From Escherichia coli (lineage in GTDB: Bacteria; Pseudomonadota; Gammaproteobacteria; Enterobacterales; Enterobacteriaceae): a DNA stretch of 64,000 nt. The DNA is taken from assembly GCF_003334335.1 (NCBI RefSeq), contig NZ_QOWQ01000007.1; one strand, 5' to 3'. Below the pieces are notes generated by a model, which made no database searches, was not told where the DNA came from, and saw only the letters and a program-made list of their open reading frames with translations. Below are positions 856 through 63,169 of this stretch, piece by piece. Numbering within the stretch: position 1 is the stretch's first letter; each line of letters opens with the position of its first letter. Both the position numbers and the translations under genes were made by a program.

Positions 856-2172
856 TCAAGCGCGTTGATTGTCTTTCATCAACAAAGCGGTCATTGCGGA
901 AATCAGACATCCAGCCAGCAAATAAATGGCGACGCTATGCCAGTTCCCGGCAAAGTAAGTGATGAGTGCAGCGGCAATAAAAGGTGTAAATCCACCGCCA
1001 ACCACACTGGCGACCTGATAACCGACTCCAGCACCACTATAGCGATAACTGGCACCAAACATTTCGGTAAACATCGGTTGTTGCACACACACCACCATGT
1101 CATGCGCAATGTTTGCCAGCATTATGGAGAAGAAAACTATCCAGAAAATAGATTGTGCTTCAAGCGCCATAAAGAAAGGAAATGTGCTCAACGTTCCGAT
1201 TAACGCACCTGTGATATAAACCCTGCGGCGACCAAAACGATCGGCAAGCCAGGCAAAACAGGGAATTGTCAAGCAGCTTAATCCACCTACCAGCAAACCA
1301 ATATTGAGGAAAAGTTCGCGCGGTAACCCCATATTCTGGGTTGAATAATTAAGTGCAAAGGCAGTAACGATGTACATCGTCAGCAATTCGCACAGTCGTA
1401 GCGCAATAATCTTCAGGAAAGCACCGGGATGTCGTAACAGCGCTTCGATAACCGGGATGCGTTTTTTCGCGGCAGCTTGATAATGTTGCTGTTGTTCAAA
1501 TTCCGCGGACTCCTCCATGCCATTGCGCACCCACAATGCTCCCAGTACCAGTACGATGCTAAACAGGAAAGGAATGCGCCAGCCCCAGCTTAAAAACTGT
1601 TCGTCAGTCGTCATCATACTGATCAATGAAACCAGTCCGGTTGAAAGCAGTAAACCTACACCGTAGCCAACTTGTACACCGCTACTGTAAAAGGCTTTTT
1701 TATTTTTCGGTGCACTTTCAACGGAAAGCAACGCCGCGCCTCCCCATTCGCCGCCGACGGCAAATCCCTGAATGGCACGCAGTGTCACCAGCAAAATAGG
1801 TGCCCACCACCCAATGGTCGAGAATGAAGGAAGAATACCAATCAAGGCTGTCGCGATGCCCATCATCCAGACGGTCAGCATTAACATGCGCTTACGTCCC
1901 AGTCGGTCGCCAAAGTGACCGAAAATGACACCGCCGAGCGGACGGAAAAGGAATCCGACGCCAAAGGTGGCAAATGCGGCGAGCGTTCCCATCGCCGGGC
2001 TTACTTGCGGGAAAAACTCGCGATTAAACACCAGTGCGGCGGTGATGCCATAGAGTAAAAAATCATACCAGTCGACGACGGCACCAGCGAAGCTGCCTAA
2101 CGCAGCTCGTCGGGCGCGACTTAACGAAAGCGTCCCTTCATCGGGACGAGTGGAGATGAGCGTGGAGTCCAT
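856..2172 (-). CDS. shiA: shikimate/dehydroshikimate MFS transporter
   Basis: 438-aa ORF with multi-TM MFS features, recognised as ShiA; synteny amn-shiA-yeeL. Confidence 0.9.
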   Translation of the reverse strand: MDSTLISTRPDEGTLSLSRARRAALGSFAGAVVDWYDFLLYGITAALVFNREFFPQVSPAMGTLAAFATFGVGFLFRPLGGVIFGHFGDRLGRKRMLMLTVWMMGIATALIGILPSFSTIGWWAPILLVTLRAIQGFAVGGEWGGAALLSVESAPKNKKAFYSSGVQVGYGVGLLLSTGLVSLISMMTTDEQFLSWGWRIPFLFSIVLVLGALWVRNGMEESAEFEQQQHYQAAAKKRIPVIEALLRHPGAFLKIIALRLCELLTMYIVTAFALNYSTQNMGLPRELFLNIGLLVGGLSCLTIPCFAWLADRFGRRRVYITGALIGTLSTFPFFMALEAQSIFWIVFFSIMLANIAHDMVVCVQQPMFTEMFGASYRYSGAGVGYQVASVVGGGFTPFIAAALITYFAGNWHSVAIYLLAGCLISAMTALLMKDNQRA

Positions 2173-2486
2173 AATGATCCTGTTTGTACTGTCTTTTTAT
2201 AATTAGTATGGAAAAGGTAACTCACATTGCCGTCGATCTATAAACGAACCTTATGAGACTACCTCGACAGAGCGCATCTGCAAATGTTTTTATGGCTGAT
2301 TAGCGGCAACATGAAAAATTCGCTGGAAGATGAAAGCGCAGGAGTTGCTGGTGTTGTTTAAGGATTAAGCAGAGGACCCACAGGTTAGAGATATGAAACA
2401 TAAAAGTCCGCATATGCACAAAATGGCACCCTGATGAGTCTGATAGACTGCATTGTATTATAACCAGTAGGGAGGCGAGGTTAGGT

Positions 2487-3539
2487 ATGTTTTTAGCATC
2501 ATTGTTGAGACGTATTGCATTTAGTTACTACGATTATAAAGCTTATAATTTCAATATTGAAAAAACAGACTTTGTTGTCATCCATATTCCCGACCAGATT
2601 GGCGATGCTATGGCCATCTTTCCTGTTATTCGGGCGCTTGAATTGCATAAAATTAAGCATCTTTTAATTGTTACGTCGACAATTAATTTAGAAGTGTTTA
2701 ATGCACTTAAACTTGAAAAGACTAAATTAACATTAGTCACAATGACTATGCAGGATCACGCAACATTAAAAGAAATAAAAGATTTAGCAAAGAACATAAC
2801 ACAGCAATACGGTACGCCGGATCTTTGTATAGAGGCGATGCGTAAAAAGAACCTGAAAACGATGATATTTATCAGTCAGTTGAAAGCAAAAACGAATTTT
2901 CAGGTTGTTGGTTTAACCATGAAGTGCTACTCCTCTTTGTGCAAGAACGCGTCCCGGATGGATCAGAATCTCCGGGCTCCCGTACCCATGACATGGGCAT
3001 TTATGATGCGTGAGGCGGGTTTTCCAGCAGTCAGGCCAATATATGAATTGCCACTAAGTGAGGATGTACTCGATGAGGTGCGCGAGGAAATGCGATCGTT
3101 AGGATCTTACATTGCGCTTAATTTAGAAGGTAGCTCGCAGGAACGTACATTTTCATTATCGATTGCAGAAAATCTAATAGCAAAAATTCAAAGTGAAACA
3201 GATATACCAATAGTGATCGTTCATGGACCAAAAGGGGAAGATAAAGCCAGGGTATTAGTGGATTGTTATAATAATGTCTACCGTTTATCCTTATCACCCT
3301 CGATTAAACGTTCAGCAGCAATCATAAAAGATGCTTATATCGCAATAACTCCTGACACCTCAATATTACATATGGCAAGTGCCTATAATACTCCCGTTGT
3401 TGCAATTTATGCTGATTACAAAACGCGATGGCCCGCAATGGCCGATGTTTCGGAGTCAGTCGTCGTTGGGCAAAAAATTGACAATATAAGTCTGGATGAA
3501 TTCGCAAAGGCATTAAAAAGTGTTTTGGCGAGAATATGA
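2487..3539 (+). CDS. yeeL: family-9 glycosyltransferase (heptosyltransferase-like), apparently intact
   Basis: 350-aa ORF; C-terminal motif ITPDTSILHMASAYNTPVVAIYAD resembles GT9 nucleotide-sugar binding region; GGAGG upstream of ATG; position between shiA and yeeJ; AT-rich. Confidence 0.7.
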   Translation: MFLASLLRRIAFSYYDYKAYNFNIEKTDFVVIHIPDQIGDAMAIFPVIRALELHKIKHLLIVTSTINLEVFNALKLEKTKLTLVTMTMQDHATLKEIKDLAKNITQQYGTPDLCIEAMRKKNLKTMIFISQLKAKTNFQVVGLTMKCYSSLCKNASRMDQNLRAPVPMTWAFMMREAGFPAVRPIYELPLSEDVLDEVREEMRSLGSYIALNLEGSSQERTFSLSIAENLIAKIQSETDIPIVIVHGPKGEDKARVLVDCYNNVYRLSLSPSIKRSAAIIKDAYIAITPDTSILHMASAYNTPVVAIYADYKTRWPAMADVSESVVVGQKIDNISLDEFAKALKSVLARI

Positions 3540-12096: not shown

Positions 12097-12172
12097 TGGC
12101 TCCTCTGACTGGACTCGAACCAGTGACATACGGATTAACAGTCCGCCGTTCTACCGACTGAACTACAGAGGA
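12097..12172 (-). tRNA. asnT: tRNA-Asn (GUU)
   Basis: Reverse complement matches the tRNA-Asn sequence (TCCTCTGTAGTTCAGTCGGTAGAACGGCGGACTGTTAATCCG...CCA). Confidence 0.95.
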
Positions 12173-13163: not shown

Positions 13164-13253
13164 GGAGAGATGCCGGAGCGGCTGAACGGACCGGTCTCGA
13201 AAACCGGAGTAGGGGCAACTCTACCGGGGGTTCAAATCCCCCTCTCTCCGCCA
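13164..13253 (+). tRNA. serU: tRNA-Ser (CGA)
   Basis: GGAGAGATGCCGGAGCGGCTGAACGGACCGGTCTCGAAAACCGG...CTCTCCGCCA, 90 nt with long variable arm. Confidence 0.95.
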
Positions 13254-21477: not shown

Positions 21478-22536
21478 TTAGAACTGGTAGACGATACCAA
21501 ATGCGAGTTGGTCGTCGGTGTTCAGTCCATGAGCGAGAACATAATCACTCTTATCAAGCAGGTTGATCTGATAAGCGGTATATACGTTCATGTTCTTATT
21601 GAAGTAATACCAGGTACCGATTTCAATGTAGTTCAGACGATCAGAATCTTTGTAACCTGCTACGTCCAGTGCTTTAGAATAGGAGTAACCGATGGATGGA
21701 CGCAGACCGAAGTCGAACTGATATTGCAGAACAGCTTCGAAGTTTTGTGTTTTGTTCACAACATCACCGTCGTCGGAATTCATGTTGTGAGATTCACCGT
21801 ACATCACAGCAGCATAGACGTTGTTGGCATCATATTTTGTTGACAGTGCCCAAACTTCTGCTTTTTCACCTTTACTATCACTAGACTGGAAATCAGTACG
21901 ATCAGAGTTTGCGTAAGCACCAGCAAATGAGAAACCGTCAATAGTGTAAGTTACAGATAAACCATGGCCATCGCCATTTGCTTTGTAGTTGCCTGTACCT
22001 TCATTTTTACCCTGATATTGCAGAGCAAAATTTAGACCTTCAACCATGCCAAAGAAATCTGTGTTACGATAGGTTGCAACACCGTTGGTACGGTTGGTCA
22101 TGAACAGGTCAGTACCAGCCCATGAATCACCGCCCCACTCAACAAACATATCAGTAAATGCTTCTGCATCATACGCGACACCGACATTACGACCATAGTC
22201 GAATGAACCAAAATCTTTGTAACTCAAACCAGCATAAGCCAAACGAGTTTGGTCAGGGTTGTCTCTGTTTGATGCTTCCAGGTCTAGTTCAAACTGACCG
22301 TAACCAGTCAATTCAGGGTTGATCTGAGTTTCACCTTTCACGCCTACACGGGCATAAGAGGTATCTTGAGAATTATCGCCTTTTTCACCATTTTCACGGT
22401 CGGTCAGAATGCGCTCACCAACCATCTTGCCGTACAAATCCAGTTTATTGCCATTTTTATTATAAATTTCAGCCGCATTTGCTGCGCCAGCAACTAATAA
22501 CGCCGGGACCAGCATTGCCAGAACTTTTCTTTTCAT
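21478..22536 (-). CDS. yedS: outer-membrane general porin (OmpC/OmpF family), intact
   Basis: ORF track 21478..22566; start trimmed to MKRKVLAMLVPALLVAGAANA signal peptide; porin N-terminus AEIYNKNGNKLDLYGK and C-terminal ...AFGIVYQF. Confidence 0.85.
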   Translation of the reverse strand: MKRKVLAMLVPALLVAGAANAAEIYNKNGNKLDLYGKMVGERILTDRENGEKGDNSQDTSYARVGVKGETQINPELTGYGQFELDLEASNRDNPDQTRLAYAGLSYKDFGSFDYGRNVGVAYDAEAFTDMFVEWGGDSWAGTDLFMTNRTNGVATYRNTDFFGMVEGLNFALQYQGKNEGTGNYKANGDGHGLSVTYTIDGFSFAGAYANSDRTDFQSSDSKGEKAEVWALSTKYDANNVYAAVMYGESHNMNSDDGDVVNKTQNFEAVLQYQFDFGLRPSIGYSYSKALDVAGYKDSDRLNYIEIGTWYYFNKNMNVYTAYQINLLDKSDYVLAHGLNTDDQLAFGIVYQF

Positions 22537-22845
22537 TATGTATTCCCTTGTGATTATAATCTTCATGAATATATCAATAAGTGCCGTTATCCAAAAAAAA
22601 GCACATTTGGATACTATTCTATGAAGTTCATTTTATTTTAAGGATTACATGTAACAAATGTATTTAAAAGATTTCAAAATGTTTCTAATCTATTTAATAT
22701 AATTCGGAATTATGAATTCTAAATATAAATATTCATGAAAATTATAAATGTATATCAATATGTTATGAGTTGAGCGGAAACATAGGGGGTATCAATGATT
22801 GTTGCGCCAAACGACTGGTGTGATCAGGCGCACATTAATGAAGGC

Positions 22846-22878
22846 ATAAAAAAAAGCCGGCATCATGCCGGCCCAAAA
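22846..22878. terminator. bidirectional hairpin terminator in yedS-yedR intergenic region
   Basis: aaaaaaaa-gccggcatcatgccggc-ccaaaaaa: perfect palindrome flanked by A-run and, on the other strand, T-run. Confidence 0.5.
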
Positions 22879-23102
22879 AATATAAACAAGACGATAAAAG
22901 GCTAATAACGGAAGCATCATGACACAGAATAATAAAAAGGTATAATTGTAATCAGTGCTAATATATTGATTAAATGAATTAATAAAGCCGATATCAAAGA
23001 TAAATAAAATCGCTCAAAACGATTTTTCCTGTATTCACTGCCGTTGCGCAAAATTTATCTATTTGTTCAAAAAATGATTGAGTCTTGACTGGCTCATCCA
23101 AT

Positions 23103-23468
23103 GTGGAAAAATGTGACTTTTATCACATAATAGTACTAAGTCTGAATTTTCCGGGTTATCTCAAAATGGAATACGGTTCGACAAAGATGGAAGAGAGACT
23201 CTCTCGCAGCCCTGGTGGCAAACTGGCTTTGTGGGCTTTTTATACATGGTGTGGCTATTTCGTCTGGGCAATGGCGCGTTACATCTGGGTGATGAGCCGG
23301 ATCCCCGATGCTCCCGTGTCGGGATTTGAAAGCGATTTAGGCTCTACCGCGGGAAAGTGGTTAGGGGCACTGGTCGGATTTTTATTTATGGCTCTGGTCG
23401 GGGCATTGTTAGGCAGCATTGCCTGGTACACCCGACCTCGTCCCGCACGTAGCAGACGCTATGAATAA
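23103..23468 (+). CDS. yedR: small inner-membrane protein
   Basis: ORF track 23085..23468; two predicted TM helices; GTG at 23103 would give 121 aa, exact start uncertain. Confidence 0.65.
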   Translation: MEKCDFYHIIVLSLNFPGYLKMEYGSTKMEERLSRSPGGKLALWAFYTWCGYFVWAMARYIWVMSRIPDAPVSGFESDLGSTAGKWLGALVGFLFMALVGALLGSIAWYTRPRPARSRRYE

Positions 23469-31340: not shown

Positions 31341-31427
31341 AACACATCAGATTTCCTGGTGTAACGAATTTTTTAAGTGCTTCTTGCTTAAGCAAGTTTC
31401 ATCCCGACCCCCTCAGGGTCGGGATTT
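31341..31427 (+). ncRNA. dsrA: DsrA small regulatory RNA (Hfq-dependent; rpoS activator / hns repressor)
   Basis: Matches the DsrA sequence AACACATCAGATTTCCTGGTGTAACGAATTTTTTAAGTGCTTCTTGCTTAAGCAAGTTTCATCCCGACCCCCTCAGGGTCGGGATTT incl. terminator hairpin and U-tract. Confidence 0.95.
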
Positions 31428-52917: not shown

Positions 52918-53017
52918 TGCCTGATGCGCTGCGCTTATCAGGCCTACAAGGTGAACTGCAATTTATTGAATTTGCACATTTTTGTAGGCCAGATAAGGCG
53001 TTTACGCCGCATCCGGC
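52918..53017. repeat. BIME: two inverted REP elements in fliC 3' region
   Basis: gcctgatgcgctgcgcttatcaggcctac and gtaggccagataaggcgtttacgccgcatccggc. Confidence 0.75.
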
Positions 53018-62866: not shown

Positions 62867-62951
<85 letters not shown>

Positions 62952-62996
62952 ACATCGGCCTCAAGCGGATGTCTGGCTGAAAGGCCTGAAGAATTT

Positions 62997-63070
62997 GGCG
63001 CGTTAACAAAGCGGTTATGTAGCGGATTGCAAATCCGTCTAGTCCGGTTCGACTCCGGAACGCGCCTCCA
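62997..63070 (+). tRNA. cysT: tRNA-Cys (GCA)
   Basis: GGCGCGTTAACAAAGCGGTTATGTAGCGGATTGCAAATCCGTCTAGTCCGGTTCGACTCCGGAACGCGCCTCCA. Confidence 0.95.
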
Positions 63071-63082
63071 CTTTCTTCCCGA

Positions 63083-63169
63083 GCCCGGATGGTGGAATCG
63101 GTAGACACAAGGGATTTAAAATCCCTCGGCGTTCGCGCTGTGCGGGTTCAAGTCCCGCTCCGGGTACCA
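63083..63169 (+). tRNA. leuZ: tRNA-Leu (UAA)
   Basis: GCCCGGATGGTGGAATCGGTAGACACAAGGGATTTAAAATCCCTCGGCG...GGGTACCA, 87 nt with long variable arm. Confidence 0.95.

Follow-up and report, generated by a model that had tools for sequence, protein, structure and literature searches.

Which RNA, if any, is encoded in the long and very AT-rich spacer between a yedS-type porin gene and drpB (formerly yedR) in Escherichia coli, and between which positions and on which strand does it lie? Reports exist of a small RNA at this place. A computational screen by Chen et al. (2002) gave the first prediction of RseX as a candidate sRNA. Douchin et al. (2006; cited in PMC8313858) have recovered it among library plasmids that suppress the toxicity of an rseP deletion, have described it by 5' RACE as a primary transcript from a sigma-70 promoter, and have reported that it reduces ompA and ompC mRNA in an Hfq-dependent manner. 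Predicted in 2002, characterised in 2006 and present in Rfam, EcoCyc/RegulonDB and the MG1655 annotation, rseX has little discovery value in itself. In the stretch of E. coli DNA analysed here (64 kb, referred to as the window, to which all coordinates apply unless another record is named), the locus is, with high confidence, the gene for RseX, a 91-nt trans-acting and Hfq-dependent sRNA whose core is predicted to pair with ompA and ompC and which is silenced by H-NS/StpA. The present analysis shows which gene this is, where and on which strand it lies, how its promoter and terminator are built, how far it is conserved, and which pairing can be computed for it.

Identity of the locus and limits of the spacer

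The whole window was scanned against Rfam 15 at gathering thresholds. The rseX family (RF01401) matched at 22849..22938 on the minus strand with 97.7 bits against a gathering score of 50 (E = 3e-12), and the match covered the full model (positions 1-94 of 94). In MG1655 the rseX ncRNA (b4603) is annotated at 2033649..2033739, between drpB (b1963, formerly yedR) and the yedS pseudogene; the minus strand of the window at 22848..22938 is identical to b4603 at 91/91 positions, and the surrounding alignment is identical at 230/231, the sole substitution lying 50 nt downstream of rseX. Gene order is also that of MG1655, with rseX pointing the same way as the porin gene and away from drpB. The first-pass annotation had named RseX as the candidate for the yedS-yedR spacer, had left its boundaries and strand unplaced, and had proposed an alignment to the published sequence and an Rfam scan as checks, the lack of any alignment counting against it. 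Both comparisons returned RseX, in the same synteny, and the gene runs from 22938 (5') to 22848 (3') on the minus strand. The locus is significant because of the Rfam match and the identity to b4603, not because of a hairpin and T-run alone: such a combination is within chance in this region (one found versus 0.6 +/- 1.0 in shuffles), and about a dozen perfect GC-rich 7-bp hairpins exist in the 64 kb. The feature is an already known gene, and its RNA sequence is no different from the K-12 reference. A permissive Rfam rescan for a second RNA in the spacer gave sub-threshold chance matches on the terminator only (RyhB, 23 versus 55). The other above-threshold Rfam matches in the window were DsrA (102.5 bits), ES036/CssrF (marginal, 42.1 bits versus 37.6) and five tRNA genes, located at 31341..31427 (+), 52940..52981 (-), 12100..12172 (-), 13164..13250 (+) and 62867..63166 (+).

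The AT-richness noticed at first pass is real, with 29.9% G+C in 22567..23102 versus 49.4% in the whole 64-kb window and only 0.05% of same-length windows as low. The limits 22567-23102 given there for the spacer had to be revised, since both depend on start codons that are no longer in use. On the right, 23102 immediately precedes position 23103, at which the GTG formerly taken as the start of yedR begins. The start of DrpB is the ATG once numbered codon 22 (23166), which has experimental support, and the drpB promoter has been mapped between the old GTG and this ATG (PMC7648144). The MG1655 annotation now uses the ATG that corresponds to 23166, and the consensus scan placed promoter-like sites near the drpB start at 23085..23112 and 23104..23131. 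The left limit follows from 22566, the ATG of the longest porin ORF; the RefSeq porin starts at 22536, and the protein begins MKRKVLAMLVPALLVAGAANA (MKRKVLA...). The true spacer is therefore 22537..23165, with a length of 629 bp and again 29.9% G+C. In a RefSeq strain that matches the window without a single difference over 901 bp, a gene annotated as 'porin' lies at 21478..22536 (-) on one side and drpB (+) on the other. The translation of the porin has a signal peptide and ends in the C-terminal YQF; yedS is a pseudogene in MG1655, and the yedS-type porin of the window is intact. Among E. coli genomes the 5' end of this porin gene varies allelically, and the gene is annotated as 'porin' or 'ompC'.

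Table 1. Features of the rseX locus in window coordinates
Feature	Position	Strand	Basis and remarks
yedS-type porin	21478..22536	-	RefSeq annotation in identical strain; intact, 352 aa
rseX gene, 91-nt RseX sRNA	22848..22938 (5' end 22938, 3' end 22848)	-	Rfam RF01401 and identity to b4603
U8 tail of intrinsic terminator (RseX nt 84-91)	22848..22855	-	Terminator scan, sequence
Terminator hairpin GCCGGCA/UGCCGGC, loop UGA (RseX nt 67-83)	22856..22872	-	Terminator scan, folding
U6 tract immediately 5' of hairpin (RseX nt 59-64); second A-run of the first-pass annotation	22875..22880	-	Sequence
Invariant core CGUUAUUAGCCUUUUAUCGUC (RseX nt 29-49, 21 nt), putative target-pairing (seed) region	22890..22910	-	7-sequence alignment
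5' stem-loop (RseX nt 14-38), Rfam consensus structure	22901..22925	-	Rfam alignment; loop varies between species
rseX -10 hexamer TACAAT, -12..-7 from annotated 5' end	22945..22950	-	Read from sequence
drpB (= yedR)	23166..23468	+	MG1655 annotation; start codon and promoter mapping (PMC7648144); divergent from rseX

Promoter, terminator and fold

Upstream of the -10 hexamer of rseX (Table 1), which is correctly placed, the best -35 element is TTAATC at 22968..22973. Because it agrees with the consensus at only 3/6 positions, the promoter was not called in the consensus scan; so poor a -35 fits an inactive gene. A near-consensus sigma-70 promoter-like site, ATGACA-16-TATAAT (11/12), lies at 22919..22946 on the plus strand, opposite to rseX. 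The 5' end of rseX falls within this site, and the -10 hexamer of rseX directly adjoins it; TATAATTGTA is nearly its own reverse complement. Read on the rseX strand, ATGACA is TGTCAT, a hexamer shared by 7/7 sequences; TATAAT corresponds to ATTATA, which is kept in 5/6 Escherichia sequences and altered in E. albertii and Citrobacter. As the main promoter of drpB the plus-strand site is ruled out, since that promoter maps between 23103 and 23166 (PMC7648144). We consider it unlikely that the plus-strand site and the weak rseX promoter form an overlapping divergent pair in H-NS-bound DNA, or else that RseX and MicC go back to a single porin-linked sRNA lineage as paralogues that have since diverged. 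If the divergent pair were true, occupancy of the antisense-facing promoter, beyond H-NS alone, would silence RseX and set its timing.

The hairpin at the other end of the gene is a one-directional terminator of rseX on the minus strand. It had been described at first pass as a perfect bidirectional terminator at 22846-22878. The palindrome does exist (GCCGGCAT-C-ATGCCGGC at 22856..22872), with A8 before it (22848..22855) and CC plus A6 after it (22873..22880); the whole string is at 22848..22880, 2 nt to the right of where it had been placed. For a terminator to work in both directions, the hairpin must be preceded by an A-run and followed by a T-run. Here, A-runs stand on both sides on the plus strand, so that a plus-strand transcript would lack a U tail; the minus strand reads UUUUUUGG-hairpin-UUUUUUUU. 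It is therefore very improbable that the hairpin halts transcription entering the spacer from both directions. In favour of it, the palindrome has no mismatch and folds just as well on one strand as on the other (-13 and -14.8 kcal/mol; z versus shuffles about -2.6 to -2.9). Against it, the plus strand continues after the hairpin with CCAAAAAAUAUAAAC, which contains no U tract, only on the minus strand did the consensus scan call a terminator (9 pairs, 3-nt loop, U8), and the flanking genes are divergent (porin on the minus strand, drpB on the plus strand), so that no plus-strand gene ends there. Two misreadings, the bidirectional terminator and the spacer limits taken from obsolete start codons, are thus corrected. 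A U-rich tract followed by a hairpin and a poly-U tail is said, in work by Otaka in 2011 and by Ishikawa in 2012, to be the layout of the Hfq-binding module of sRNAs; the 3' end of RseX (U6 tract, terminator hairpin, U8 tail), as judged from its letters, would be a typical example.

The Rfam structure of RseX consists of the 5' stem-loop (nt 14-38), a long unpaired stretch and the terminator. The whole RNA folds no better than shuffles (z = -1.4), and the terminator alone is robust. Seven orthologous sequences (Escherichia spp. and Citrobacter amalonaticus) were compared, among which nt 12-23 and especially nt 29-49 are invariant, and the hairpin loop, the 5' end and the flanks of RseX vary. 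The pairs of the 5' stem-loop are kept in 97-100% of cells with no compensatory change. The single compensatory exchange, G-C to A-U at the base of the terminator in Citrobacter, was equalled in 63/500 shuffles. Covariation is nearly uninformative here, the divergence among the seven orthologues being too small for it to prove or disprove the structure.

Distribution, conservation and action of RseX

Copies of rseX were found in 4879 of 5426 complete E. coli genomes, 1623 of them at >=99% identity, 2921 at 95-99% and 335 at 90-95%; the gene is absent from 547 genomes (about 10%). These counts agree with the listing of RseX as a 'variable' sRNA that has been lost in several lineages (PMC3318445). 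In NZ_AP027850.1, from an E. coli without rseX, an IS1A element lies between a truncated hchA and drpB (2156..3534), and the porin gene and rseX are gone together. Two rseX matches are on records classed as plasmids. None of the 12 matches listed in NCBI PGAP E. coli records (0/12) carries a feature under rseX, and MG1655 alone among the records examined annotates it; with the gene, its strand and its boundaries now placed in the window, this annotation gap is filled. A pattern scan of one genome per species recovered rseX in E. albertii, E. whittamii, two further Escherichia lineages and Citrobacter amalonaticus in addition to the E. coli representative, all copies scoring above the Rfam threshold (70.9-95.2 bits). 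The same scan gave no Salmonella copy; it demanded 23 exact bases, and its result is no evidence of absence. The order drpB-rseX-porin is common to the orthologues (yedJ-drpB-rseX-porin in Citrobacter amalonaticus), and the spacing of about 310 nt between rseX and the porin gene is maintained as far as Citrobacter.

Footprinting of the spacer revealed two conserved islands, the body of RseX (60-77% invariant columns) and a block of about 150 nt abutting the porin ATG (77-87%); the DNA between and upstream of them has 10-30% invariant columns. The second island, at 22537..22688 on the minus strand and directly 5' of the porin ATG, is the most conserved part of the spacer, above RseX itself: in 6 species 77-87% of its columns do not vary, and it is 83-90% identical to the Citrobacter sequence. 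It contains a promoter-like site, TTGTTA-16-TAAAAT, at 22657..22630, and is probably the porin promoter together with a constrained 5' UTR.

The degree to which the first island is constrained bears on whether rseX still has a function. An evolutionary relic, permanently silenced by H-NS and acting on overexpression only, would explain that RseX has always escaped detection in wild-type E. coli and Salmonella (PMC8313858, PMC1804206), that about 10% of complete E. coli genomes lack it, in one case through an IS1-associated deletion, and that it is listed among the variable sRNAs (PMC3318445). Nevertheless, not one base of the 21-nt core changes between E. coli and Citrobacter, in a spacer whose neighbouring DNA has strongly diverged, which argues for purifying selection on the RseX RNA, and we regard a relic without natural function as having a low probability. 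Together with the drpB-rseX-porin order in Citrobacter amalonaticus, the invariant core lends modest support to selection on a silent sRNA.

Conservation also bears on a coding function. An ATG-initiated 42-aa ORF (22792..22920, minus strand) begins at RseX nt 19 and could specify a small hydrophobic protein, alone or as part of a dual-function RNA. No Shine-Dalgarno sequence stands ahead of it, however, and the frame passes through the terminator with no stop codon within the 91 nt; both ATGs are missing in Citrobacter (CATTATC), and 1-nt differences in T-runs change the frame between the window and other Escherichia sequences. The ORF was rejected as a gene on these grounds, and we assign a protein product a negligible probability.

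Pairing of RseX with candidate targets was computed with correction for accessibility, the total energy being the sum of hybridisation and opening energies. RseX nt 37-50 paired with ompA -21..-7 (total -12.7 kcal/mol) and nt 29-44 with ompC -15..+1 (total -10.8 kcal/mol). Both predicted sites span the Shine-Dalgarno region and both involve the invariant core. The windowed hybrid energies were matched by 4/150 shuffles for ompA and 6/150 for ompC, or about 2 sd. When RNAduplex was applied to the whole of RseX and the leaders of ompA, ompC and the porin gene, it paired the molecules from end to end, which is unrealistic and no better than shuffles (z about -0.4); these runs were set aside in favour of the windowed, accessibility-corrected search. 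From the computed pairing and the alignment, we infer that the invariant core, nt 29-49, would serve as the target-pairing seed; the RseX-ompA site has no experimental mapping according to PMC8313858. In the windowed search, pairing of RseX with the initiation region of the neighbouring porin did not go beyond chance (109/150 shuffles as good).

An alternative reading takes the transcript for an attenuator, a terminated leader acting in cis on the porin gene downstream, and not for an RNA that works independently in trans. The orientation of rseX like the porin gene, and the linkage and spacing of about 310 nt kept to Citrobacter, would suit a leader. Against it stand the strong terminator with its U8 tail, the separate and highly conserved block with a promoter-like site (22657..22630) that adjoins the porin ATG, the lack of significant pairing with the porin initiation region, and the state of MG1655, which has an identical rseX beside a porin pseudogene. 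In addition, plasmid-borne RseX works in trans on ompA, ompC, fimB, ihfB and fepA (PMC8313858, PMC11979758). A cis-acting leader is thus highly improbable, and RseX is best read as a trans-acting sRNA.

Its action in trans on ompA and ompC, its Hfq dependence, its silencing by H-NS and its targets fimB, ihfB and fepA are taken from the literature. Removal of H-NS has been reported to yield an RseX band of about 91 nt and a form of about 75 nt, which are stronger in an hns stpA double mutant, and RseX also represses fimB and ihfB (PMC8313858). Repression of fepA needs the terminator loop, Hfq and RNase E, and apparently proceeds without direct pairing (PMC11979758). Read together with the anatomy of the locus, these reports suggest a mechanism in which transcription of the minus strand would start at 22938 from a weak sigma-70 promoter (TACAAT, 22945..22950) and end at 22848 behind the intrinsic terminator (22856..22872 plus U8). 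The single-stranded invariant core (nt 29-49) may then pair with the ribosome-binding regions of ompA and ompC, upon which mRNA levels would fall, and the U-rich tract, terminator hairpin and poly-U tail would form the Hfq-binding end. H-NS/StpA on the very AT-rich surroundings would keep rseX silent in wild-type cells.

Relation to known small RNAs

The closest relatives of RseX in function and setting are MicC and MicF (micC-ompN, micF-ompC), which, like RseX, are short, Hfq-dependent and trans-acting sRNAs encoded beside porin genes and which likewise exert repression at the initiation region of the mRNA for a major porin. ompC is a target of MicC as well as of RseX (PMC1804206). The three RNAs belong to separate Rfam families, and rseX is co-oriented with its porin neighbour, whereas micC and micF are divergent from theirs. 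The RseX core (22890..22910) resembles the 5' seed of MicC from MG1655 (GUUAUUAGCCUUUUAUCGUC versus GUUAUAUGCC-UUUAUUGUC); as a sign of sequence kinship this resemblance was rejected, 266/2000 shuffles scoring as high. Both rseX and micC are encoded beside a quiescent porin gene. RseX, unlike MicC and MicF, is silenced by H-NS, and we know of no condition that induces it. Overall, the closest match is RseX of E. coli K-12 itself (b4603; RF01401), to which the RNA of the window is identical over 91 nt, with the same relative strand, position, putative promoter and terminator; the two loci differ in the adjoining porin, which is intact in the window (352 aa) and a pseudogene in K-12, and the RNA itself shows no difference.
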